Assembly: GCA_023379265.1 (NCBI GenBank)
Contig: JAMCUI010000012.1
Span: forward strand, 27,936 to 91,935
Reading direction: 5' to 3'
Length of the DNA: 64,000 nucleotides
Source of the DNA: Patescibacteria group bacterium
GTDB taxonomy: Bacteria; Patescibacteriota; Microgenomatia; 2-02-FULL-39-11
Shown here one piece after another: positions 3,312 through 50,321 of the stretch; within the stretch, counting starts at the first letter, position 1, and each line of letters opens with the position of its first letter. A program made the translations under genes and the position numbers. Under the pieces are notes generated by a model. It did not search any database and had not been told where the DNA came from. It saw only the letters and a program-made list of their open reading frames with translations.

Positions 3312-5819
3312 TTATAAAAGCACTTCAAGAAGCGCATTCACATACTTTCCCAGGTGAAACCTCTTTCTTCTTCTTATAAGTATCAGGAAAAATGCTAGTG
3401 GAACGATCGACAACCATGATTCATTTACATTCAACTTTGCTCCTCCCAAAAGCATCCCTGCAAAACTTGTTTCTGTAGCCTTGGCAAAAGCCGGAGACAC
3501 GAAACTTCCACGCAGCATTCTATTTTGTCCGTTGTTCTGGCCCAATATATATGTCTGAGGATCCTGTTGTAAATAATCCTGCGCTTGGTTTGCCAGTCGA
3601 TATCTTTGGTTTGCGACATTTGCAGATGCCTGATAGTAACTCGGCGGGTAATAATATTGAGTCTGCCCAGCCTGCTGCTGCTGCTGTGTCTGGGAGCCGC
3701 TTGTATCTGTCGGATAATAATATGAGTAATAAGTCTGTGAGTAATTTTGGCTATCAGCTGTTTGATTTGTTGCGTTCACACCGCCTATATTGGTATCTGC
3801 AGTATTAAATGACGGTAAAGGATCCAATGTCGGTGTAGGAGATATTGTGCCTTGTAAATTGTTATTGCTTCCTGTTGTACCTGAGTTATTCGTGTCTCCA
3901 CTTATGGCTGCAGTTGTCTGATTATAGTTTTGTCCGGGCGTCACCACGTTCCCAAGGAAATTACCAAATACATTCACCAGAAGTACGGCAAAATTCTTGG
4001 CTGTGACATTTGTATTAACCAGATTAACCAGGTTTAGTCCAACTTGAGCATTGCCCGTCTGTATTTGTCCTGCCCCCGTATTGTACTGGGCTTTATTATT
4101 CCCTGTGTCAGCATTGGCCGTAATATTGTTTACGATGCCGGCATTATTGTTGTTGGCGATGGAAGTATCTGACGTACTATTGTATGTTGCGTTGTTTGTC
4201 GATAAGGCACCAGTCCCACTATTGCTTACATCCGTAGTATACGTACCAGACCCTCCCCCTCCTGTTTGTTGCACAGGTAAACCGTTTGAAGCAGATGTCG
4301 CTCCCCACGGAGCTCCCATGATGTAGCCGACCCACTTGCCCATATCATTTACAATGACAAGCCATACAGTTCCATTCTCATCAACTGCGTTAGTATTGGC
4401 TACAGTACTATTACTGACTGAGGTATTGGAATTACCCGTAGTGACACTTCCTCCTCCTGTATTTATGGAAGCTGTGTTATTGCCTGTATTGGCAGTAGCG
4501 TTTACTGTACTTGCAATATCAGCGGTATTATTATTTGTGAAGTTTGTCGAATCTGAAGTGTTGGATGTGGCATTATTTGTTGATAACGCGCCAGTAGTGT
4601 CGTTGGTCACATTTGTTCCCGCACTTCCTGTGTTTGAAGCTGTAACATTTCCGGTGGAATTTTCAGTACTCCATGGCAAAACAATATTTCCCGCCAAAGT
4701 CCCATAAATGTTTACTACACCCATTAGCCAATTACTGACATTCAGATTGGAATTAACCATGTTTATAATGTTGCCAAGAGCTGTAGCATTTCCAGTCTGA
4801 ACAGTACCGTTACCCGTGTTGTAGGATGCACTGTTTTGACCGGTGACCGCCTGCAGGTTTATATCATTTACCAGTTGAGCATCATTTCCGTTGGCTTCTT
4901 TGACTGTAAAGGAATTATTTGCTGATGCATCATTGGATGAACCGGCTCCCGTCACTGAATTTTTGGATACTGTAGGAGAGGCGTTTGAAAATCCGCTACC
5001 AACGCTTGGATCACCTGTCTGAAAGACTATGTCCCCTGTCTGTGTACCGTATACATTGTATGTGGAAAAGCCACCCACACCGGTGATATTACTGTTTAGC
5101 TTATTTAAGAGATTTACTGCAGATTGGGTATTTCCAGTTGATACCTGACCGTTTAATGTATTCAGATCAGCATAGTTGAATCCAGTATTTGTGACTGCGT
5201 TTATCTTATTCTGAAGATTGGCCATGTTCTGGTTTAGAACTTGTTGCCAATTAGAATTGGTTTCCGAAGCGCTATTGGTGGACAAAGGACCCGTACCAAC
5301 ATTGGCCGGATCACTTACACCACTTGTACCTGTATCACCTGTTACCCCTGTCGGTCCGCTTGTATTTGATGTTCCTAAAACATTATCGGTGGTACCAGCA
5401 CCACCTGTTGAACTACTCCCTGTAGGTTGTGTCCCTGAAGCACCAGTCGACCCAGTTGTCCCAGTCGGCCCGGAAGGACTTGAAGGATTTGAAGCAGGTG
5501 GATCGCTACTTGTCGGAGCTGGAGAGCTTGTTGGCGATACAGAAGAATTGGTGGGCGCTGGAGCGCTTGTTGGCGCAGGTTGTGAAGGCGGTGATGTAGG
5601 AGCAGAAGCGCTTGTTGGCGCAGGTTGTGAAGGCGGTGATGTAGGAGCAGGATCACTTGGCGGCTTTGGAGCGCTTGGCGGGCTTGTAGGAGCAGGGGCG
5701 CTTGTTGGCGCTGGGGCGCTTTGCCCAAAGACCTGCGGCACCCACACCACGTTTCCTCCGGTAAATACCAGGCTCAAAATAAGTACAAAACTAATAATTT
5801 TTCTTATAAACTTATTCAT
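3312..5819 (-). CDS. Large (835 aa) cell-surface protein with a signal peptide, PAPTS tandem repeats, Asn/Thr/Gly-rich repeat modules and a C-terminal TM segment plus RRRKR.
   Basis: Signal peptide followed by repeated APTSPPSQPAPTSA, then motifs such as NTGNNTASINTGGGSVTTGN and DTGNNKAQYNTGAGQIQTGNAQ. A Q-run and YYYP follow, and the C-terminus is LSIVPLAFFLILIRRRKR. Confidence 0.6.
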   Translation of the reverse strand: MNKFIRKIISFVLILSLVFTGGNVVWVPQVFGQSAPAPTSAPAPTSPPSAPKPPSDPAPTSPPSQPAPTSASAPTSPPSQPAPTSAPAPTNSSVSPTSSPAPTSSDPPASNPSSPSGPTGTTGSTGASGTQPTGSSSTGGAGTTDNVLGTSNTSGPTGVTGDTGTSGVSDPANVGTGPLSTNSASETNSNWQQVLNQNMANLQNKINAVTNTGFNYADLNTLNGQVSTGNTQSAVNLLNKLNSNITGVGGFSTYNVYGTQTGDIVFQTGDPSVGSGFSNASPTVSKNSVTGAGSSNDASANNSFTVKEANGNDAQLVNDINLQAVTGQNSASYNTGNGTVQTGNATALGNIINMVNSNLNVSNWLMGVVNIYGTLAGNIVLPWSTENSTGNVTASNTGSAGTNVTNDTTGALSTNNATSNTSDSTNFTNNNTADIASTVNATANTGNNTASINTGGGSVTTGNSNTSVSNSTVANTNAVDENGTVWLVIVNDMGKWVGYIMGAPWGATSASNGLPVQQTGGGGSGTYTTDVSNSGTGALSTNNATYNSTSDTSIANNNNAGIVNNITANADTGNNKAQYNTGAGQIQTGNAQVGLNLVNLVNTNVTAKNFAVLLVNVFGNFLGNVVTPGQNYNQTTAAISGDTNNSGTTGSNNNLQGTISPTPTLDPLPSFNTADTNIGGVNATNQTADSQNYSQTYYSYYYPTDTSGSQTQQQQQAGQTQYYYPPSYYQASANVANQRYRLANQAQDYLQQDPQTYILGQNNGQNRMLRGSFVSPAFAKATETSFAGMLLGGAKLNVNESWLSIVPLAFFLILIRRRKRFHLGKYVNALLEVLL
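5528..5715. repeat. Tandem ~48-bp DNA repeats encoding the PAPTSPPSQ low-complexity linker.
   Basis: Near-identical units gcgcttgttggcgcaggttgtgaaggcggtgatgtaggagcag, repeated consecutively. Confidence 0.6.
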
Positions 5820-10799: not shown

Positions 10800-11096
10800 A
10801 TCCAGATAGCAAAATCATGCGGGGACAAGTATTCCGAGACCATTTGAGTCAAAGATGAAGCCGCCCCGCAAGTCCCAAAAGATATTGAGGGAGAAGATGC
10901 GGAAAGAAAACCTTTCTCAAACGGAAGGATAAGTAGAATCCGACGGGTATGCCCGTGACAGCTGGAATAAGAAGTTATGAGTTGTGGGTTACGAAATATA
11001 ATTATTAAAGACCCATCACCCACCACACATCACTCATAACCAAAATAAGGTGGTACCGTGAATATCTCACCCTTTGACAAAGGTGAGATTTTTTTG
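10800..11096 (+). ncRNA. T-box riboswitch leader, probable Ala specifier, with an intrinsic terminator.
   Basis: Conserved T-box sequence AATAAGGTGGTACCGTG (11044-11060). It overlaps the 5' side of the terminator hairpin atctcaccctttg/caaaggtgagat, which is followed by TTTTTTT (11064-11096). Upstream Stem-I-like helix gcgggg...ccccgc carries AGTA/GAGA and a loop GCC-G. Confidence 0.6.
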
Positions 11097-11208
11097 ATGG
11101 TTGGTTAACGAGTATGAACGAAGTGAAGACGAGTTTACCAGCCGATCAATCCGCCGAAGCTTTAGCGAAGGCGGATATTATAAATGTTACAATTTAATCA
11201 AATAAATT

Positions 11209-42086: not shown

Positions 42087-45059
42087 TTACTGCCAGGCTT
42101 CGCAGATAAGCCGGAAATCACAAAAATCACACCATGGTCCCACCTTTGGCTCAAAAGCGCTGATTGAGATTTCCTGTGCTTTTCCCAAAAGATCTTCTCT
42201 TGCTTGTACCAACTGCTCCTCTGACCTGGTTGATGACACTTTCTCATACTGGTCAAAAAAATAAAAGGAAAGTATGACATCTTCAGCTTTTTTGTTATAT
42301 ATACCCCTGTCAGTAGCCGCAAGTGCATAAACCGTCATTTGAAGATTTTCCCTGATCTCTTTTTCCGTTGGCCTTCTGCCTGTCTTATAATCTATGACCT
42401 CTATCTTGCCTTCGGAAGTAATATCCACCCGGTCAATTTTGCCGCCTATTGCCAGTGTCGGACTTAGCCTTATCTTGAAAACCTGTTCCAAACTTTGCGG
42501 GATAATTTCCGGATTATAGAATTTCTCAAAAAAGTTAGTCAGCATTTCCCTGCCTCTTTCTTTCATCCTATCCTCGTATTGCCTACTGCCGTAACCCACA
42601 GGCAACCATACCTCATCAAGTATCTTTAATAATTTCTCCTTATCCAGTTTCTCGCCCCGTTTGATCCTTTCATAAAAAGTCTGCAGCGCCTCATGCATAG
42701 AAGATCCAAAAGATCCGGCCGCACTTGGAGGAACTGGAATTTTCAATATATATCTGTATTTATACTGCAAAGGGCAAGTGGTAAAAGTATCAATTTGTGA
42801 ATATGAAAGATAGTTTATAGGCTGACGTATGGGATTTCGCGGCAACTCTTCCACTTTTTTCCACTCCAAAAGAGTCAACTGCTTTATTTTCTCCTTTGAA
42901 GAATTTTTGCCTAGCATCGCCAAATCAATATCCAACGTCTCCCCGACAAAAGTGGAAATTTTTCTCTCCCTTTTGCCTTCTCCGTAATAATTGGCTGCAG
43001 AAAGTATAAACCTATCACGGGCACGGGTCACACCTACATAAAAAAGCCTTCTTTCTTCCTCCAGATGATAATCCCCCTCAGGTAAAATCTCTTTTACCAA
43101 CTCATCGGGTATGGGTATCTTTTCCCGTCGCTCTGTTGTAGGAAATCTTCCCGCCACAAGATTTACCAGAAATACATTTGGAAATTCCAGGCCCTTGCTT
43201 GAATGCACTGTCAATATATTTACGGCGTCATTTTCCATCCAGTCGACATCAGCCGCCAGCGGACTCTCTCCCAACTCCATGGACATGTTTATCCAGTCGA
43301 TAACGGCCTGCACACTGGCATCATCATGCCCTGCTTCAAAACTCTTCAATTTATTGAAAAATTTTGAAATGTTTTGTGCAGTCCTTTCTTCCTTAACTGA
43401 TTTATATTCTGTAAACTGGCGCAGAAGACCGGCATCCTCAAGGAAAAAATAAAGTATCTGCCCGGCAGTCTCAGTCTTTACCAGTTTCAGATGGCGCTCT
43501 ACCATTTCTGTCAATTTTGCCAATTTCTCCTTTGTCTGGATACTTATGAATGGCAGAAAATTTCCGTAATTTTTTTCCATACTCCAATGATCTTTATCTC
43601 CTTTATGGTAAGCAACTACCGCTTCAATCGCCTCAAAAGTAGAAAGACCGACCCGCCTGGCAAAATTGTTTATGGATGAAAGATCACGGATGTTTATGCC
43701 AAATATCGGCATGGAAAGTACACGGTAAACTGCTACAGAATCAGAAATATCAGACAAAAGAGTCAGGTATGCAATAAGGTCTTTTATCTCAGGCTGCCGG
43801 AAAAGCATCCCCGGCCCCAAGAATTGATAAGGAATACCGGCTCTCACAAGCCCCCTGACAAAAGGCTCTGCCTGGCTGTTAGCTCTTATCAGTACGGCAA
43901 AATCCTTCCAATCATATACCTCTTCATCTTTTTCATCCTTACAACTTTTTTTAATATATTTTATTTTCTTTACCACCTCTTCCACTTCATCCTCCACTCT
44001 TTCCTCCCGGATAAATTCAATTTTCTCCCCTTTCAGTTTCCTTGCCGAGACAAGCTTCTTATCGAATTTTTCTTTTACCTCCAGCCTGTCGGGATTATTG
44101 AATTGGATTAATTTATACGCACTATCCAAAATCTCTTCAGATGAGCGGTAATTTTCCGTCAGGACAACCATTTTTGCTTTTGGAAATCGGCTCCTGAATT
44201 GGATTATGTTTGAGATAGCAGCTCCGCGCCAACGGTATATCGCCTGATCATCATCCCCCACGACAGTAATATTTTTTCCTCTGCCGGCAAGAAGTATTGC
44301 CAATTCATTTTGGGCAAAATTGGTATCCTGAAACTCATCTATCAATATATATTTGAACTGTTCCTGATAGTGTCGCAAAATGTTTTGTCTTTTGCGGAAT
44401 AGCAAAAGCGTATTGCTTATAAGATCGGAAAAATCCATCACTCCTTCTTTCACCTTCAACTCTTCATAAGTCCTGTAAGCGTTTGCCAATTCAATATATT
44501 TATCAGTGCTCACCTTTTCTTCCTCACTTTGTTCCCTGTTCCCTGCTCTTTGTTTATTAGCCCACTTAATATATTGACTAGGCTCCACGTCTTCATCTTT
44601 CAATCTCTCAAAATGCTGCAGCATACCTTCTATGAATTTTGTCGGGTTCCCAAGAGGCCTGAAATAATTTAAGGCAAAGCGGAATAGGTTCTTCCTGAAA
44701 AAAATGATGCTTTCAGCCTGCGTCATCAGTTTGTATCCTGGGTCAAGTCCTATCTCAAGAGCTTCCTGCCGCAATATTTTTTCCCCAAATGAATGGAAAG
44801 TAGTAATAAACATTTGTGTATATCCATATGGCATGGCAATATCCACTCTTTCCTCCATCTCTTTTGCGGCTTTATCAGTAAAAGTCAAAGCCAGAATTTC
44901 TACAGGTTTGGCCAGATTTTTTGAGATAAGCCACTTTATCCTCTCGGTAATAACAGTTGTCTTTCCTGTTCCGGCTCCGGCAATTATAAGAAGAGGGCCC
45001 ACGCCATGACGAACTGCCTGAGATTGTTTCTTATTTAGTTTTCTGAAATCCATCTTCAT
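42087..45059 (-). CDS. UvrD-family SF1 helicase fused to a C-terminal PD-(D/E)xK nuclease with a 4-Cys (Cas4/AddB/RecB-like) cluster.
   Basis: Walker A AGAGTGKTTV, DEFQDTN, and helicase motif VHSSKGLEFPNVF. C-terminus carries CPLQYKYRY...WCDFCDFRLICEAW. Confidence 0.8.
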   Translation of the reverse strand: MKMDFRKLNKKQSQAVRHGVGPLLIIAGAGTGKTTVITERIKWLISKNLAKPVEILALTFTDKAAKEMEERVDIAMPYGYTQMFITTFHSFGEKILRQEALEIGLDPGYKLMTQAESIIFFRKNLFRFALNYFRPLGNPTKFIEGMLQHFERLKDEDVEPSQYIKWANKQRAGNREQSEEEKVSTDKYIELANAYRTYEELKVKEGVMDFSDLISNTLLLFRKRQNILRHYQEQFKYILIDEFQDTNFAQNELAILLAGRGKNITVVGDDDQAIYRWRGAAISNIIQFRSRFPKAKMVVLTENYRSSEEILDSAYKLIQFNNPDRLEVKEKFDKKLVSARKLKGEKIEFIREERVEDEVEEVVKKIKYIKKSCKDEKDEEVYDWKDFAVLIRANSQAEPFVRGLVRAGIPYQFLGPGMLFRQPEIKDLIAYLTLLSDISDSVAVYRVLSMPIFGINIRDLSSINNFARRVGLSTFEAIEAVVAYHKGDKDHWSMEKNYGNFLPFISIQTKEKLAKLTEMVERHLKLVKTETAGQILYFFLEDAGLLRQFTEYKSVKEERTAQNISKFFNKLKSFEAGHDDASVQAVIDWINMSMELGESPLAADVDWMENDAVNILTVHSSKGLEFPNVFLVNLVAGRFPTTERREKIPIPDELVKEILPEGDYHLEEERRLFYVGVTRARDRFILSAANYYGEGKRERKISTFVGETLDIDLAMLGKNSSKEKIKQLTLLEWKKVEELPRNPIRQPINYLSYSQIDTFTTCPLQYKYRYILKIPVPPSAAGSFGSSMHEALQTFYERIKRGEKLDKEKLLKILDEVWLPVGYGSRQYEDRMKERGREMLTNFFEKFYNPEIIPQSLEQVFKIRLSPTLAIGGKIDRVDITSEGKIEVIDYKTGRRPTEKEIRENLQMTVYALAATDRGIYNKKAEDVILSFYFFDQYEKVSSTRSEEQLVQAREDLLGKAQEISISAFEPKVGPWCDFCDFRLICEAWQ

Positions 45060-45092
45060 ATATATTGATAAGACTTATTACCAATGATAGGA

Positions 45093-46136
45093 TTATTCTC
45101 CCTGACTTTTTTGTCTATTCTTATTTTCTTCAACATCACTCAATGATTGGACACTTTTCAATTTCTGCCCAAGAAGAGTAAAGCTTGAGGAGACATTATT
45201 CATCTGGTTATATGCGTTAGTCAGATGACGGTTTAACACATTTAGGTTATCTTCAATCCTGAGATAATCTTTCTGCACAGCTTTTATTGTTAGAAGTATT
45301 TGCCTGGCTTGTTTCTCGATTCTTTGTCCCTCAAATGACATAAGGATTGCCCGCATATAAGCATAAAATGTCATCGGGGACACGGGCAGTATCCTTTTCT
45401 CAGCGGCATAATCATAAAGACGGGGATTATTCACCACTTCATAATATACTGCTTCGCTGGGAAGATACATGAGAGCATAATCTATCGTTCCCTCATCAGT
45501 CAGTATATATTTTTGGGAGATATCATCGATATGCTTCTTGACGCTTTTTTCAAAAATCTGTCCGGCACTTTTCCTCTCTTCATCATTTTTTGCCTCGGTT
45601 ATCCGACGGAAACTCTCCATAGGAAATTTAGAATCAATTGGGATAATACCATTTGCCGTTGTAACTGCCGCATCCACTGTCGCTCCCGACCTGAATGAGT
45701 ACTGCAGATGGAAAGATTGTTTGGGCAGCATCTGGGAAAGAATCTCTTTGAGTATATGTTCACCTATATTACCGCGAAGTTTTGGACTTTGCAGAAATTC
45801 CTGCAAATCTTTCATGCTACGTCCAATCTCGCTCATCTCACCTATGTTTTTCTGGACGCCCGCAATAAATTTTGCTGCATTATCCAGCCGTTCATTCATA
45901 TCACGGGTGGAAGACTGTAGGGTAGAAACGATATTTTTATTCTGCTGGTCAATCCGAAAGTTTGTACTTTTCAGCCACTCCAATATCTCCTCTGACGGCT
46001 TTTGCCTTTTCTCAAATTCATCAATAAATCTTTTCAAAAGGAAAATAATAATCAGGAAAAATGCGGCAATAACGGATAGAAGAATAAAAAGATTCACCTG
46101 GTTCATAAAAAACTGGGAAAAATAATTGGATTTCAT
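45093..46136 (-). CDS. rmuC: DNA recombination protein RmuC.
   Basis: N-terminal TM segment plus coiled coil, and family motifs LRGNIGEHILKEIL and IIPIDSKFP. Confidence 0.75.
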   Translation of the reverse strand: MKSNYFSQFFMNQVNLFILLSVIAAFFLIIIFLLKRFIDEFEKRQKPSEEILEWLKSTNFRIDQQNKNIVSTLQSSTRDMNERLDNAAKFIAGVQKNIGEMSEIGRSMKDLQEFLQSPKLRGNIGEHILKEILSQMLPKQSFHLQYSFRSGATVDAAVTTANGIIPIDSKFPMESFRRITEAKNDEERKSAGQIFEKSVKKHIDDISQKYILTDEGTIDYALMYLPSEAVYYEVVNNPRLYDYAAEKRILPVSPMTFYAYMRAILMSFEGQRIEKQARQILLTIKAVQKDYLRIEDNLNVLNRHLTNAYNQMNNVSSSFTLLGQKLKSVQSLSDVEENKNRQKSQGE

Positions 46137-46266
46137 TCTAACATTAAAAAGGCTAAAATGTAATTAGCCATCCTTGCGAGTTAGATAATTTCTACTGAGA
46201 GCTTTTAATTTCCAGGACCCATAAATTCAGTTAAAAAAACTTAAACATTTCCGTCATAATTACTCT

Positions 46267-46572
46267 ATGCATAGAAAAAATAGAAGAAAACTCATTTCCA
46301 GGACGGCAATTACCATAACTATCTTTCTCCTTTATGTAAATATTTTTCCTCCAGAAAGTCCATTTTCATTTCTAGGTTTCTATCTACTTGCTACGCTAAC
46401 ACTCTTTTTTTTCTTTATGATTTTTCTGGACTCAAAAAGCCAGTCAATCCTTTGGTCTTTAACCATTATCACCTTTCTTATACTGCGGCAATTTCATCTG
46501 GAGAATGTTTTAAATATTCTTATCCTAGCCAGTCTTGCCGTGACCCTGGCAATATATTTCAGTAAAAGCTGA
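46267..46572 (+). CDS. Small membrane protein (3 TM), hypothetical.
   Basis: Complete ORF with hydrophobic helices. Confidence 0.3.
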   Translation: MHRKNRRKLISRTAITITIFLLYVNIFPPESPFSFLGFYLLATLTLFFFFMIFLDSKSQSILWSLTIITFLILRQFHLENVLNILILASLAVTLAIYFSKS

Positions 46573-46591
46573 AACTTTTAGAGCTTCATTT

Positions 46592-46619
46592 ATTGACAAT
46601 CATTTGAAATATGCTATAT
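46592..46619 (+). promoter_or_regulatory. Sigma70-type promoter for the DUF62 gene leader.
   Basis: TTGACA (46592-46597), 16 nt, TATATT. Confidence 0.5.
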
Positions 46620-46804
46620 TTAGTAAAATGACGATTCAATCTTCCGTTATGATGGACATGATGCTTGCTTCCTAGCGGAGGTTTTTTATTGTGAAAATTT
46701 GACCTCCGCAAGGAGGTTTTTTTATGCAATTCTTGCTGATACAAAGTGAGACATAGAAATGCATAATCCGCCGAAGATTTAGCGAGGGCGGATGGATAAA
46801 TATC

Positions 46805-47560
46805 ATGTATAAATTAATTACGGTTACAACTGATTTCGGAGACCAGTTTGCTGCCGCCCAACTAAAGGCGATAATTGCTGTTTTGGGTTTCGATGGTGAA
46901 ATTATCGAAAACCACAGTGTTTCCTCTTTTTCTATTGCTGAAGGAGCTTTCCAAATTAATCTTATCTCAAAATTTTCTCCCTCAGGCACAGTACATTTAG
47001 GAGTAATTGATCCTGGAGTTGGAAGCAATAGAAGAGGAATTATAGTAAAGACAAAAAACTTCTGGTTTGTCGGACCTGACAACGGCTTATTGTATCCGGC
47101 AATTGAAAATGATGGAATTGAAAACTCATGGGTTTTAAGTGAAAACAAAATCAGCCAAAAAGTATCAAGCACTTTCCACGGCCGGGACGTATTTATAAAA
47201 GCTGCAGTTTATGCCGCACAGGGCAAACGCCCAGAAAATTTCGGGTGCTGCCCAGTTAGCAACAACTCGTTAAAGAAAATTAATTTCAGGACCGGCCAGG
47301 TACTTCATATAGATTCTTTTGGCAATATCAAAATATACTGGCCAAACGAGATTACGGTCGGAAGAAAATTGCTTATTAAAAATAAAAAAATCCGGCTGGA
47401 ACTTCCGATAGTAAAAACTTTCTCCGATGTACCACAAAACAGTCCCCTTGCAATTATTGGAAGTAGTTATACTCTGGAGCTGGCCGTAAATTTGGGTAAT
47501 GCCGCGGCATTTTTGGGCATAAATAATACTGATATTTTGGATATTGCGTATAAACCCTAA
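46805..47560 (+). CDS. DUF62 / SAM hydroxide adenosyltransferase family protein (fluorinase/chlorinase-like fold).
   Basis: TDFG near the N-terminus, GVIDPGVGS, and FHGRDVF. Confidence 0.75.
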   Translation: MYKLITVTTDFGDQFAAAQLKAIIAVLGFDGEIIENHSVSSFSIAEGAFQINLISKFSPSGTVHLGVIDPGVGSNRRGIIVKTKNFWFVGPDNGLLYPAIENDGIENSWVLSENKISQKVSSTFHGRDVFIKAAVYAAQGKRPENFGCCPVSNNSLKKINFRTGQVLHIDSFGNIKIYWPNEITVGRKLLIKNKKIRLELPIVKTFSDVPQNSPLAIIGSSYTLELAVNLGNAAAFLGINNTDILDIAYKP

Positions 47561-47581
47561 TGGATATATTTCAAATTCTTT

Positions 47582-47896
47582 ATGAAAAGCATAAGTAAAT
47601 TTTCAATAAAAGAAACCAGCAAATCTTTTCAAGGGCCGTGGGACCCCAAAAATCTTACCGAAATTTCTGGTAAAATCCTACGTATTGCTAAGTTTGAAGG
47701 AAGATACGGCGATACTCTCCATACCCATAAATATGACGAATTTTTCCTTGTCTTGAAAGGGAAAATTGAAATTATCACGGAAATAGGTAAAATTAGACTA
47801 TGTCCGCTGGAAGGGACTATTATCCCAAAAGGCATTCAACACCAGCCCTTTGCCAAAAAGCCTGCACTGGTTTTAATGTTAGACCCTAAAAATTAA
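47582..47896 (+). CDS. Small cupin-fold protein.
   Basis: ~100 aa, with His-containing beta strands (HTHKYDEFFLVLKG...IPKGIQHQP). Confidence 0.45.
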   Translation: MKSISKFSIKETSKSFQGPWDPKNLTEISGKILRIAKFEGRYGDTLHTHKYDEFFLVLKGKIEIITEIGKIRLCPLEGTIIPKGIQHQPFAKKPALVLMLDPKN

Positions 47897-47898
47897 CT

Positions 47899-49329
47899 AT
47901 GATTAAATTTTACCTTACAAGTGCAATTCCCTATGTCAACGCCGCTCCCCACATCGGCCATGCACAGGAATTTGTCTATTCTGATACCGTCAGAAGATAC
48001 AGAAAACTAAAAGGAGAAGATGTCACATATCTTTGCGGAGCCGATGAAAATGCTCTAAAAATTGTCCAGGCGGCGGAAAAGAAAAAACAAGACCCCCAGA
48101 CTTTCTGCAATGTACATCAAAAGGAGTTTCTTAACCTGGCAGAGAAACTCAACGTGAAATTTGACATATGGCAAAGGGGAACAGACCGCAAACATCACTT
48201 TCCCGCCTCACAAAAGCTTTGGGAACTTTGCGACAAAAAAGGAGATATCTATAAAAAGACATATACCGGTCTGTATTGTGTGGGCTGTGAAACTTTTTAT
48301 ACGCCTGATGAGTTGGACGGGAAAGGAGAATGTTTTGAACATCCTGGCAAAAAACTTGATAATGTATCAGAAGAAAATTATTTTTTCAAACTTTCCCGCT
48401 ACCAGAAATTTCTGGAAGATTTGATTAAAACAAATAAATTAAAAATCTTTCCAGAAATCCGCAGAAATGAAGCTTTTGCTTTTATAAACCGCGGGCTTGA
48501 AGACTTCTCTATCTCCCGTAGCAGACAACGCGCCAAAAATTGGGGAGTACCGGTACCGGATGACCCCAACCAGATTATGTATGTCTGGTTTGACGCCCTG
48601 AATATTTACCAGAGCGGCATTGGGTTGGGCTGGGATGAGAAGAAATTCAGAAAATGGGCTCCCCAGGATGCTATGATTATTGGTAAAGGAATATTGCGTT
48701 TCCATGCGGTATACTGGCCGGCAATTTTGCAGTCGGCCGGACTACCGCTTCCTCAAACTCTCTTTGTCCACGGTTATATGACCGTTGACGGCCAAAAAAT
48801 GTCCAAAACTGTTGGCAACGTTGTTGATCCAGTTGAAATTCTGGAAAAGTACAATAGTGATTCCTTAAGGTACTATCTTTTACGCGAAATTCCCTCTTAT
48901 TCCGACGGGGATTATTCAGAAAGGAGATTTAAGGAGCTTTATAACTCCGACCTGGCTAACGGATTGGGTAATCTCGTGGCAAGAGTGGCCCGACTGGCGG
49001 AAAAGACAGAGGTGCTTCAAATACATAAATTCTCATTTAATGAACGAGCCGCAGGAAATTTCCAAAAAAATCTGGAAGAATACCGGTTCAATGATGCGAT
49101 TGAAATTATCTGGAATAAAATCAAAGAAGCCAATCAACATATTGACACAAATGAACCATGGAAATTGACAGAGAAAGGCCTCACGTCATTTCTAAATGTT
49201 TCAGCCAACAGAATTGTCGAAATTGCCACTCTCTTGCAACCGTTTCTGCCCCAGACTTCAAAAAAAATTCTCGACCAGTTCCAGTCAAAAGAAATTAGAT
49301 CACAACCGCCTTTGTTTCCCAGATTATGA
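47899..49329 (+). CDS. metG: Methionyl-tRNA synthetase (short form).
   Basis: HIGH-class motif PHIGHAQEF, a zinc knuckle (CVGCETF...C), and KMSKT as KMSKTVGN. Confidence 0.85.
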   Translation: MIKFYLTSAIPYVNAAPHIGHAQEFVYSDTVRRYRKLKGEDVTYLCGADENALKIVQAAEKKKQDPQTFCNVHQKEFLNLAEKLNVKFDIWQRGTDRKHHFPASQKLWELCDKKGDIYKKTYTGLYCVGCETFYTPDELDGKGECFEHPGKKLDNVSEENYFFKLSRYQKFLEDLIKTNKLKIFPEIRRNEAFAFINRGLEDFSISRSRQRAKNWGVPVPDDPNQIMYVWFDALNIYQSGIGLGWDEKKFRKWAPQDAMIIGKGILRFHAVYWPAILQSAGLPLPQTLFVHGYMTVDGQKMSKTVGNVVDPVEILEKYNSDSLRYYLLREIPSYSDGDYSERRFKELYNSDLANGLGNLVARVARLAEKTEVLQIHKFSFNERAAGNFQKNLEEYRFNDAIEIIWNKIKEANQHIDTNEPWKLTEKGLTSFLNVSANRIVEIATLLQPFLPQTSKKILDQFQSKEIRSQPPLFPRL

Positions 49330-50321
49330 AAGCCTTTGTCCTGAAGTCGTACTCTTCTAAACCACAACTTTCCAATATTCCTATCCCCACACCAACAAGA
49401 GATGAAGTTCTGGTAAAAGTGGCCTATTGCGGGGTAAATCAAGCCGATCTTAAAATATTTTCCCAAAACTACGGTAACAGCATTTCCTTTCCGCTTACCA
49501 TGGGATCGGAAATTGTAGGAACGCTAAATGGAGAAAAGAGGGTCGCTATCCATCCCTACTTTGCCTGTGGTAAATGCACTTATTGCCAAAAAGGAGCATC
49601 GATATTTTGTAAGACTCCCTGGAAACTTTTTGGGGTGCACAAAAATGGCGGATACGCACAGTATGTGGCAGTACCCAAAAAATCCATCATTCCCATCCCT
49701 TCATCTCTATCTTTTCCAGACGCCTGTGCTCTTACCCTTTCTGCCGGAACCGCATTTAGAATGGTAACGGTTTTGGCAGATATAAAAAAGGGTGACTGGG
49801 TTGCAGTCACTGCTGCCGCAAGCGGCGTAGGCATTTATTCTACCCAACTGGCAAAATATATGGGGGGAAATGTCATCGTTCTTGCAGGAGACGATAAAAA
49901 GTTGGGAGTGTTGAAAAGTTTCGGGATAAAGCATCTTATCAACTACCAATCTGCAAATTTTCAGGCAAAAATTATGGATATCACTGGAGATCATGGCATT
50001 GATACCCTTATTGATACAGTAGGAGGAGTACTTTTTGAATCACTTCTGCCTCTTGTCTCCAAAGAAGGGACAACTGTTTTCTGTGGCGCCACAGCCGGAA
50101 AAGACATCAGAATAAACATGGCTGATATGTATTACCGGCAAAAAAAACTTATCGGATCTTCAGGCTTTACCTCTGCCGAACTGAGAAATATATTCCATCT
50201 CGTTGTAAAAAATAAAGTAAAACCTGTTATCGATTCAATCTTTCCTATTGAAGAATTACCCAAGGCTTGGGACAGACTCCGTAAACGACAGGTATTCGGC
50301 AAGATTCTAATTAAAATTTAA
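49326..50321 (+). CDS. Zinc-type medium-chain dehydrogenase/reductase (alcohol dehydrogenase / quinone oxidoreductase-like).
   Basis: CGVNQAD and structural-zinc Cys cluster CGKCTYCQKGASIFC, plus GAASGVG Rossmann motif. Confidence 0.7.
   Translation: MKAFVLKSYSSKPQLSNIPIPTPTRDEVLVKVAYCGVNQADLKIFSQNYGNSISFPLTMGSEIVGTLNGEKRVAIHPYFACGKCTYCQKGASIFCKTPWKLFGVHKNGGYAQYVAVPKKSIIPIPSSLSFPDACALTLSAGTAFRMVTVLADIKKGDWVAVTAAASGVGIYSTQLAKYMGGNVIVLAGDDKKLGVLKSFGIKHLINYQSANFQAKIMDITGDHGIDTLIDTVGGVLFESLLPLVSKEGTTVFCGATAGKDIRINMADMYYRQKKLIGSSGFTSAELRNIFHLVVKNKVKPVIDSIFPIEELPKAWDRLRKRQVFGKILIKI

Follow-up and report, generated by a model that had tools for sequence, protein, structure and literature searches.

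Amino-acid attenuators of Escherichia coli such as trpL, hisL, pheL, thrL, leuL and ilvL combine a short open reading frame (ORF) carrying a run of cognate codons with 1:2, 2:3 and 3:4 pairings, a U-run after the 3:4 hairpin and a stop codon at which the ribosome masks region 2. Aminoacyl-tRNA synthetase (aaRS) genes can be controlled in this way as well, as in the leader-peptide attenuator pheM-pheST of E. coli. In Firmicutes, T-box and S-box (SAM-I) leaders control metS/metG and methionine genes, and methionine genes are usually described as being under riboswitches, T-boxes or repressors; to our knowledge, methionine is absent from the amino acids that are read by leader-peptide attenuators. 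For the CPR/Patescibacteria, which cannot be grown alone, we know of almost nothing on gene regulation, and the physiological role of DUF62 SAM hydrolases is debated. DUF62 enzymes have been described as SAM hydrolases that form a salvage pathway (10.1101/2025.08.29.672840), and surveys describe methionine genes as riboswitch-controlled (PMC1262725). A His leader peptide precedes hisS paralogues in bacilli (PMC2965389), and the leaderless polycysteine short ORFs of mycobacteria are amino-acid-responsive attenuators of the downstream operon (10.1101/834739).

The window, by which we mean the whole 64-kb stretch of DNA that was analysed, contains a three-gene operon that lies on the forward strand, as do the parts of its leader. 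Its first gene encodes a DUF62 / SAM hydroxide adenosyltransferase (SAM hydrolase; 46805-47560; Pfam SAM_HAT_N, 4.3e-39, and SAM_HAT_C, 5.7e-16), the second a cupin-domain protein (47582-47896) and the third a methionyl-tRNA synthetase (MetRS; 47899-49329; Pfam tRNA-synt_1g, 3.1e-96). Judging from its sequence, this operon has a leader that most likely works as a transcription attenuator of the classical ribosome-mediated kind, with methionine codons as the ones read. Twenty of 22 Microgenomates-type loci that we inspected have kept it; the resulting set of 20 consists of the window and 19 comparison loci with the leader, from Gottesman-, Ames- and Roizmanbacteria and WWE3. MetRS is encoded downstream of DUF62 in 14 of these 19, the usual order being DUF62-(cupin)-MetRS. 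With the E. coli attenuators the leader shares the cognate codon run and its placement, the intrinsic terminator and the exclusive 2:3 and 1:2 pairings. It differs from them in reading AUG (Met), in having an upstream ORF (uORF) that is predicted to be leaderless rather than driven by a Shine-Dalgarno (SD) sequence, in its CPR/Microgenomates host and in its targets, which are an aaRS and a SAM hydrolase and not a biosynthetic operon.

The leader begins with a sigma-70-type promoter at 46593-46620, in which TTGACA (46593-46598) and TATATT (46615-46620) are separated by 16 nt and a TG precedes the -10 box. This promoter, already recognized in an earlier note on this DNA, matches the consensus at 11 of 12 positions, is the best promoter-like site within 45000-49000 and is identical in L009, L010 and L011. 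The uORF (46628-46675) starts with an ATG 7 nt past the -10 box, has no SD and encodes MTIQSSVMMDMMLAS (15 codons, then the stop). The earlier note had overlooked this Met-rich ORF. A -10-like hexamer lies 4-9 nt upstream of the uORF start in 20/20 loci and an SD in none, a spacing which implies that the mRNA would be leaderless. Several genes of the window likewise begin a few nt after a -10-like hexamer. SD-like motifs accompany 8 of the 50 long ORFs in the window, and the DUF62 start, correctly noted before as lacking an SD of its own, follows this local norm.

At 46649-46663 the uORF carries the putative regulatory codons ATG ATG GAC ATG ATG, i.e., four Met in five codons. This in-frame cluster is the sole instance in the 64-kb window (expected 0.055). 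The uORF, its frame, the Met cluster and the position of the stop codon are common to the 20 loci, and leader peptides from other loci include MISQTSVMMDMMNAS, MNTQTSMMMAMEADP, MKFEFVSMMSMQTV, MNKFVTMMQMTSV and MNVNIVAMSMMMTC. Each uORF has 2-6 internal Met codons (L014 two only), which are grouped toward the C-terminus with the last one 2-4 codons ahead of the stop, and the stop codon itself falls at -2 to +2 nt relative to the first base of region 2 in 20/20 loci. Synonymous changes were observed in the uORF (GTT/GTA, GAC/GAT, ACG/ACA). In leaders of the GGAGG type a Ser/Thr-rich patch stands ahead of the Met run, its codons doubling as region 1; this patch aside, what the 20 uORFs have in common is confined to their Met residues, reading frame and stop position. 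Such retention of only the Met positions is a signature of codon sensing and not of a specific arrest sequence. It weighs against an arrest peptide like TnaC or SpeFL, which would respond inside the exit tunnel to a ligand such as free methionine or SAM, a reading in favor of which it can be said that SAM is the substrate of the regulated enzyme and that the motif SVMMDMM is identical among the closest relatives. Outside the Ser/Thr patch, however, the Met positions persist in changing surroundings (MMDMM, MMMAM, MMQM, MMSM, MSMMM, MAM), and the peptides have just 13-15 residues with the Met run close to the stop. We consider an arrest peptide improbable.

The end of the uORF lies inside the loop of the first of two hairpins that the earlier note had described. 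Both are present as claimed: hairpin 1, GCTTCC-TAGC-GGAGGT, at 46667-46682 followed by U6, and hairpin 2, GACCTCC-GCAA-GGAGGTT, at 46701-46718 followed by U7. The proposed terminator/antiterminator geometry also holds, with an alternative pairing of 46670-46682 with 46702-46714 (13 nt, 92% complementary). The reading of both hairpins as alternative terminators, on the other hand, is not supported: hairpin 1 with its U6 is not conserved as a terminator, the U-rich tract after region 2 being just U3-U5 (UUUGUG-like) in the other loci. Hairpin 1 fits better as a 1:2 element (anti-antiterminator or pause) than as a terminator.

The leader can be divided into four regions. Region 1, CUUCCGUUA (46641-46649), pairs with region 2 in the fold of uORF plus region 2; GCUUCC at 46667-46672 is a further copy that resembles region 1, and in the other GGAGG-type loci (A)ACYUCC is found immediately 5' of the Met run. 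Region 2, GCGGAGGUU (46675-46683), has as its first base the last base of the uORF stop codon. The U-tract behind it runs to 46687 and is a possible pause. Region 3, GACCUCCGC (46701-46709), is the partner of region 2 in the antiterminator or of region 4 (46712-46718) in the terminator, of which region 4 forms the 3' arm. This intrinsic terminator, GACCUCC-GCAA-GGAGGUU plus U-run (46701-46723), has a predicted stability of -11.3 kcal/mol.

Comparison of the 20 loci showed that regions 2/3/4 vary as blocks, namely GGAGG/CCUCC/GGAGG, GCGGGG/CCCCGC/GCGGGG, GGCGG/CCGCC/GGCGG and GAGGGUCUG/CAGACCCUC/GAGGG. The comparative alignment that the earlier note had called for speaks for the terminator and antiterminator stems, which covary, and not for the elements downstream of them. 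In the terminator, 95.7% of the cells were paired and 22 were double-change cells, a level reached in 0 of 500 shuffles, and the signal collapsed on sliding. The antiterminator had 17 double-change cells and a covariation score of 0.254 vs 0.123, again with 0 of 500 shuffles as high. In fixed columns the 2:3 helix was paired in 65.9% of the cells of a plain MAFFT alignment and in 73.7% after model-based realignment, a partial gain; these values are low because the stem types differ in register, and folding locus by locus is more informative for this helix than fixed-column alignment. The individual 2:3 duplexes had stabilities from -9.5 to -18.5 kcal/mol. In a cross-locus duplex control, 30% of the pairings between unlike stem types matched the weakest native stability, and this control discriminates poorly because all stems are G-rich. 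The leader region as a whole folds better than its shuffles (z = -4.79, 0 of 200 as good). A covariance model built from the leaders scored 49-81 bits across the 20 leaders and matched nothing at full length across 586 kb of control DNA, including 61 DUF62 loci of other phyla.

The effect of ribosome position was mimicked in silico by masked equilibrium folding. The terminator formed in 19/20 loci with no ribosome present and in 20/20 with the ribosome at the stop codon, and it was lost in 17/20 when a stalled ribosome occupied one of the final Met codons. At the remaining three loci the equilibrium fold kept the terminator despite a ribosome on the last Met codon, and therefore a kinetic argument is needed there.

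Two other readings of the hairpins bear on the same comparison. The hairpins could be plain terminators of the upstream gene for a 101-aa membrane protein (46267-46572), with the Met-rich ORF being coincidental; this gene has the same orientation, stops 95 nt short of hairpin 1 and is syntenic in several loci. A near-consensus promoter nevertheless separates it from the hairpins, loci whose upstream neighbor is different or on the opposite strand (L009, L012, L016-L028) still have the uORF, its distance to the -10 and the stems, and the leader element invariably stands before DUF62, which leaves this reading extremely unlikely. Control could also be mainly translational, of the ermC type, with the 3:4 hairpin masking ribosome entry until a stalled uORF ribosome opens it. 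The DUF62 ATG lies 6-22 nt past the U-run in 10 of the 20 leaders (e.g., L009, L011, L021, L025 and L026), and the genes lack an SD, hence local structure could matter. At every locus, however, the hairpin remains canonical, rich in G+C and with a run of U5-U8 behind it, which marks an intrinsic terminator, and the switch is unchanged even where the start is 50-430 nt from the hairpin (the window, L008, L014, L016, L018 and others). As the main mode, translational control is very improbable; it is not mutually exclusive with termination, and the two modes may coexist.

From the geometry of these elements and their conservation and covariation in the 20 loci, we infer how a transcription attenuator would work here: where transcription starts, that the uORF is translated, that the ribosome stalls and what regulation results. 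Transcription would begin ∼7 nt past TATATT, at or beside AUG 46628, and MTIQSSVMMDMMLAS would therefore be translated from a leaderless 5' end. Region 2 could then pair with either copy of region 1 or with region 3, and region 3 alternatively with region 4 to give the terminator with U7 behind it. With ample Met-tRNA(Met), the ribosome would reach the UAG and mask region 2, leaving regions 3 and 4 to form their hairpin and RNA polymerase to terminate at ∼46717-46723. If no ribosome is present, a 1:2 or long composite hairpin would form and the terminator would again result. When Met-tRNA is scarce, the ribosome would stall on the last AUGs (46658-46663) and cover region 1 while region 2 stays free; 2:3 would form first, region 4 would remain unpaired, and the resulting read-through would express DUF62 (SAM to adenosine and methionine), the cupin gene and MetRS. 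The signal is most likely not SAM or SAH but Met-tRNA charging, which the four AUG codons would report, and an operon that encodes MetRS plus a methionine-releasing SAM hydrolase fits this physiologically. One complication is that the leader peptide itself starts with Met-tRNA(fMet); under severe starvation its translation could therefore cease, with termination as the result.

The earlier note had considered control by a leader peptide or by a riboswitch sensing SAM or SAH. The leader-peptide part stands, through the Met uORF at 46628-46675 and not through the ORF that had been proposed, which encodes MQFLLIQSET (46724-46756, ATG to TAG). That ORF is present with its GGAGG 7 nt upstream of the ATG, and this GGAGG would be single-stranded in the antiterminated form. 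It sits downstream of the terminator, however, and its ATG is confined to the window and the sister genome (L010), where it opens a different ORF; it is missing from the other 18 leaders (L008, L009, L011 and 15 more). We regard it as lineage-specific and probably incidental. The riboswitch part found no match: an Rfam scan of 46000-47200 at E<=10 gave no hit, including no T-box, covariance models of the SAM/SAH riboswitches (SAM-I to SAM-VI, SAH, SAM/SAH) did not match the DUF62 leader, and the whole window held no relevant family at gathering score. An aptamer would not fit either, because a conserved ORF takes up the 47 nt that precede region 2. The CCGCC hairpin further downstream, which had been called conserved, does recur in front of alaS within the window, and it was not kept in the orthologous leaders, being missing from the same 18 as the ORF. 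In the sister genome, with 94% identity of the DUF62 protein, other sequence replaces both. The chance that a metabolite riboswitch, or the MQFLLIQSET ORF together with this hairpin as a conserved regulatory element, controls the operon is next to negligible.

On sequence grounds, we read the segment from 46724 to 46804 as a hypervariable insertion of REP-like hairpin modules outside the conserved switch. Hairpin B (46722-46766) has the arms TTATGCAATTCT/AGAAATGCATAA and a loop containing GATACAAAGTGAG; the 13-mer loop was also found, on a different stem, ahead of alaS in the sister genome, within the 5' UTR (L210, position 1374). Hairpin A, the CCGCC hairpin (ATCCGCC-GAAGATTTAGCGAG-GGCGGAT with a 14-nt loop; 46766-46793), ends 11 nt before ATG 46805 and has its second copy in the window at 11149-11176. 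At the orthologous site it is not found in L008, L009 and L011, and L010 has another hairpin there. Its family comprises at least 120 metagenome loci, with the loop GAAGCTTTAGCGAAG nearly invariant and the stems differing, and its core occurs in DNA of 33-71% G+C. The metagenome copies have no orientation bias and stand in unrelated contexts, about one fourth to one third of them within long open frames and some next to tRNA genes; a tRNA/tmRNA scan of the 64-kb window itself found none. It is by these dispersed copies, the lack of a fixed orientation and a presence that varies among relatives that hairpin A belongs with REP-like repeats. The same distribution led us to reject the idea that this hairpin regulates DUF62 or aaRS genes specifically. 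Two further candidates were dropped: a second promoter downstream of the terminator and ahead of the DUF62 ATG, for which reading by eye gave no convincing -35/-10 pair, and a hairpin insertion with target-site duplication (ATGCATAAT at 46759, ATGTATAAAT at 46805), for which the evidence is too thin.

REP/BIME and Rickettsia palindromic elements are short interspersed palindromes. They resemble hairpins A and B, and these only, in being G+C-rich, scattered in intergenic regions, sometimes in tandem or within ORFs, and variable between close relatives; in contrast to REP/BIME, the loop of the hairpin family is the part that is held nearly constant and the stems are free. Instead of neutral insertions, hairpins A and B could be functional 5'-UTR modules of attenuator operons, serving as stabilizers, processing sites or protein-binding sites. 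Both copies of hairpin A in the window are sense-oriented between an attenuator terminator and the start of an aaRS-type operon, a similar order of terminator, variable hairpin and AAUCC-stem hairpin is found in L014, L016 and L102, and loops are kept although stems differ. Most orthologous leaders do without such modules, though, the sister genome has different ones in the same UTRs, and the indifference of the family to orientation and to open frames points the other way, so that we hold a functional role to be rather unlikely.

Among the known systems, pheM-pheST and the His-leader hisS genes share with the model proposed for the DUF62 leader an aaRS operon that is induced by scarcity of its own charged tRNA through cognate leader codons; they differ in amino acid and phylum, and the DUF62 leader has a SAM hydrolase as the first gene and a putatively leaderless uORF. 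The mycobacterial polycysteine ORFs are leaderless first cistrons, as is predicted for the Met uORF, and like it they group codons for a single amino acid; the mechanisms can be likened in outline. Their codons are for Cys and not Met, and the DUF62 leader has an explicit, covarying terminator/antiterminator pair. The T-box and S-box leaders of Firmicutes perform the task proposed here, read-through of a terminator that depends on Met; neither a T-box sequence nor a specifier loop nor an aptamer is present in the DUF62 leader, whose sensor would be the translating ribosome. A Met version of the leader-peptide attenuator was found neither in the Rfam scans nor in our literature searches, which returned nothing relevant on Met leader peptides, on leader peptides in CPR or on the hairpin core string. 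The post-terminator hairpins, with conserved loops and free stems, are reshuffled among the 5' UTRs of attenuator operons in sister genomes, and one of their cores turns up across very different metagenomes. The joint proposition that this is the first Met-specific leader-peptide attenuator, leaderless and Microgenomates-wide, and that the post-terminator hairpins form an undescribed mobile or protein-recognized class, seems to us evenly balanced.

The same genome appears to use related devices elsewhere. The leader of alaS in the window matches the T-box model with 41 bits (E 1.2e-7), below the gathering score of 93, and an Ile/Thr-rich leader peptide with a terminator precedes an amino-acid kinase gene. 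These two devices extend the picture of amino-acid sensing in CPR, and the leader covariance model could be used to annotate the same leader in other genomes. If the proposed attenuator is correct, the DUF62 SAM hydrolase and MetRS would be governed by Met-tRNA charging, and transcription-translation coupling and leaderless initiation would serve amino-acid sensing in CPR. Co-regulation of DUF62 with MetRS and its induction under Met-tRNA shortage would hint at methionine recovery, in that the job of DUF62 in these scavengers would be to regain methionine from SAM or from its inactive epimer.

The leader of the DUF62 (SAM hydrolase) gene, at 46592-46804, contained the elements that the earlier note had described by eye: a TTGACA-16-TATATT promoter at 46593-46620 (an 11/12 match and the best site within 4 kb), hairpin 1 at 46667-46682 followed by U6, hairpin 2 at 46701-46718 followed by U7, an alternative pairing of 46670-46682 with 46702-46714 (13 nt, 92% complementary), an open reading frame encoding MQFLLIQSET (46724-46756) and a CCGCC hairpin (hairpin A, ATCCGCC-N14-GGCGGAT, 46766-46793) shortly 5' of the DUF62 ATG at 46805. 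The leader RNA folded into a much more stable structure than shuffled controls (z = -4.79), and its sequence was 100% identical among four independent assemblies. It also carried a Met-rich uORF of 15 codons (ATG ACG ATT CAA TCT TCC GTT ATG ATG GAC ATG ATG CTT GCT TCC TAG, encoding MTIQSSVMMDMMLAS). This uORF starts at 46628, 7 nt after the -10 hexamer, and its stop codon (46673-46675) falls within the hairpin 1 loop, adjoining GCGGAGGUU (46675-46683). The in-frame cluster of four ATG in five codons occurred only once on both strands of the 64-kb window, compared with 0.055 expected from first-order Markov simulations.

Orthologous loci were gathered by exact-protein look-up and a scan of species-representative genomes, which gave a comparison set of 22 DUF62 loci (50-94% protein identity) that were CPR/Microgenomates-type by record title or synteny. 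The device was present upstream of DUF62 in 20 of these loci and missing from the other two; it was not found at 61 DUF62 loci from other phyla. It consisted of a -10-like hexamer, 4-9 nt, an ATG (GTG once) and a uORF of 13-42 codons with 2-6 internal Met codons grouped near the end, the last of them 2-4 codons ahead of the stop in all 20 loci. The offset between the stop and a G-rich segment (region 2) was -2 to +2 nt; ∼20 nt further on came region 3, complementary to region 2, then a 3-5-nt loop, region 4 of the same type as region 2, and U5-U8. The uORF peptides were very diverse except for the Met residues and, in leaders of the GGAGG type, a Ser/Thr-rich patch preceding the Met run, and synonymous changes were seen between close relatives (GTT/GTA, GAC/GAT, ACG/ACA). 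The records of L010, L013, L015-L018, L022, L023, L025 and L028 are titled 'uncultured Gammaproteobacteria bacterium', yet gene content and synteny clearly place these contigs in the CPR/Microgenomates, and the titles are probably a labelling artefact of submission.

Because of the fixed spacing from the -10 hexamer and the lack of a Shine-Dalgarno (SD) motif, the Met-rich uORF would be translated from a leaderless mRNA. An SD-like motif preceded only 8 of 50 long ORFs of the window, with a very strong AAGGAGGTG in a few, and several long ORFs begin 4-8 nt 3' of a TATAAT-like hexamer, which suggests that leaderless mRNAs are frequent in this genome.

Regions 2, 3 and 4 varied jointly as blocks (GGAGG/CCUCC/GGAGG, GCGGGG/CCCCGC/GCGGGG, GGCGG/CCGCC/GGCGG and GAGGGUCUG/CAGACCCUC/GAGGG). 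In the model-based alignment, 95.7% of the cells of the terminator (3:4) were paired, with 22 double-change cells; none of 500 shuffles reached the observed value, and the signal collapsed when the 3' partner was slid. For the antiterminator (2:3), 73.7% of cells were paired, with 17 double-change cells and a covariation score of 0.254 vs 0.123, and again 0/500 shuffles reached the observed value. The lower paired fraction arises because the registers of the stem types are offset by one alignment column; folded locus by locus, the 2:3 helix had 6-10 pairs and -9.5 to -18.5 kcal/mol in every locus. Region 1 was (A)ACYUCC directly 5' of the Met run in GGAGG-type leaders, where the codons of the Ser/Thr-rich patch double as region 1, an overlap that explains why Thr/Ser-Ser codons are conserved there. 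Leaders of the GCGGGG type had it as CCGY, located 3' of the Met run and 5' of the stop. The window carries both candidates, CUUCCGUUA (46641-46649) and GCUUCC (46667-46672). The tract after region 2 is U6 in the window and only U3-U5 (UUUGUG-like) elsewhere; it was rejected as a conserved terminator and may act as a pause site.

Each leader was refolded with the ribosome-covered nucleotides blocked up to 11 nt beyond the first base of the A-site codon. The terminator formed in 19/20 loci with no ribosome and in 20/20 with a ribosome at the stop codon, and stalling at one of the final Met codons abolished it in 17/20; in these folds 2:3 paired and region 4 was unpaired. In the other three loci, read-through would have to be explained kinetically, as is commonly done, by 2:3 pairing before the polymerase has reached region 4. 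We consider it likely from these sequence comparisons that the DUF62 leader is a ribosome-mediated attenuator with the logic of the trp attenuator and AUG as the sensed codon. The earlier note had suggested leader-peptide or riboswitch-type control: the first class was right, with MQFLLIQSET the wrong uORF, and no riboswitch was found. No Rfam family matched the leader region at E<=10, none reached the gathering score in the whole window, and a tRNA scan found no tRNA genes in the 64 kb. The leader shows the sequence-level features of a leader-peptide attenuator, with a predicted leaderless start for the uORF, and lacks those that define riboswitch or T-box membership.

Two further putative attenuators were detected in the window. 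A T-box leader and terminator (10812-11096, +) precede alaS (ATG 11209), and L210, from the sister genome, and L212 keep them as well; at 41 bits (E 1.2e-7), below the Rfam gathering score of 93, the T-box would be missed by standard annotation. A candidate second leader-peptide attenuator (1925-2088, -) was a weak match (20 bits) of model R1, the covariance model built from the attenuator leaders. It has a TTGACA-17-TAGAAT promoter, an Ile-, Val- and Thr-rich uORF (MLKGKSFIIVTTTIGPSLKEVS, 2043-1975) whose end is overlapped by region 2, and a terminator, GAGACCUCC-UAAA-AGGAGGUCU, with a U-run after it. A gene for an amino-acid kinase (aspartokinase-like; 779-1693, -) lies ∼230 nt downstream of this candidate.

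The part of the DUF62 leader beyond the terminator was not conserved. In both L009 and L011, 9 nt separate the U-run from the DUF62 ATG, so the ∼80 nt with MQFLLIQSET and the hairpins are an insertion. Hairpin A, which the earlier note took to be conserved, differed or was absent in these leaders and in the sister genome; there, DUF62 shares 94% protein identity and the leader is near-identical as far as the U-run, after which the sequence is quite different, with another hairpin (TTCCGATCC-GAGGCTTAGCGGAA-GGATCGGGA) of similar loop and different stem. In the sister genome (L010, 2948-3015), an ATG straight after the U-run opens a 21-codon ORF overlapping the DUF62 start out of frame, which may permit termination-reinitiation coupling; the stop of MQFLLIQSET, its window counterpart, lies 48 nt ahead of the DUF62 start. 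A second copy of hairpin A (11149-11176) lies between the T-box terminator and alaS, where the sister genome has other sequence. The 13-mer GATACAAAGTGAG forms the loop of hairpin B (46722-46766) at 46738-46750 and, on a different stem, a hairpin loop in the sister-genome alaS 5' UTR (L210, 1374-1386), which suggests that hairpin modules have been exchanged among UTRs located after terminators.

In a metagenome scan, the hairpin core (GCCGAAGNTTTAGCGANGGC, GCCGAAGCTTTAGCGAAGGC) was found with variable stems at no fewer than 120 loci (L090-L209). Among the matches listed, stems ranged from 3 to 10 bp and G+C from 33 to 71%, 15 copies lay <=30 nt from tRNA genes, between about one in four and one in three were inside long open frames, and orientation showed no bias with respect to neighbouring ORFs. 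On the basis of these varied stems, base compositions and contexts, we assign hairpin A to a widespread interspersed (REP-like) family outside the switch; hairpin B is probably a similar module, also outside it. The family has no Rfam entry, and no paper containing the GCCGAAGCTTTAGCGAAGGC string was found in the literature searched. L118 has tandem copies, and some copies adjoin sister hairpins, for example CCGCCTTCGCCAAGGCTACGGCGG. In L186 (∼3640-3720) a copy lies in frame within a 393-codon open frame, reading ...AGLPAEALAKAG..., a situation reminiscent of the palindromic elements inserted in frame in Rickettsia. Another palindrome type, CTCACCC..TCCCTCTCTTAA-N-TTAAGAGAGGGA, was located between attenuator terminator and start codon in Amesbacteria-type loci (L017 2955-2990, L020 2945-2980, L024 ∼2945-2985, L102 ∼600-650). 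Since both window copies of hairpin A and similar modules (L014, L016, L102) directly follow attenuator terminators, the hairpins may serve a function in the 5' UTRs of these genomes.

In the window, DUF62 (46805-47560, +) is followed by a cupin gene (47582-47896, +), methionyl-tRNA synthetase (MetRS; 47899-49329, +) and a zinc-type alcohol dehydrogenase (49326-50321). MetRS lay 3' of DUF62 in 14 of 19 leader-bearing comparison loci, and the leader preceded DUF62 alone in four others. DUF62 enzymes were recently reported to hydrolyse the inactive (R)-SAM epimer in a salvage pathway (10.1101/2025.08.29.672840), which fits a role in methionine recovery.

The closest relatives of the DUF62 leader include the classical amino-acid attenuators. 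Among those of aminoacyl-tRNA synthetase genes it resembles pheM-pheST. It can likewise be compared to the His leader preceding hisS paralogues in bacilli (PMC2965389) and to the leaderless poly-Cys short ORFs of mycobacteria (10.1101/834739). A 2005 survey placed methionine operons under riboswitch control (PMC1262725). The literature searched yielded no account of a leader peptide built on Met codons, an absence that is not proof of novelty. The DUF62 leader belongs to an already known kind of attenuator, of which the Met-codon version is a new member, and through it a shortage of Met-tRNA would induce both MetRS and an enzyme that frees methionine from SAM.
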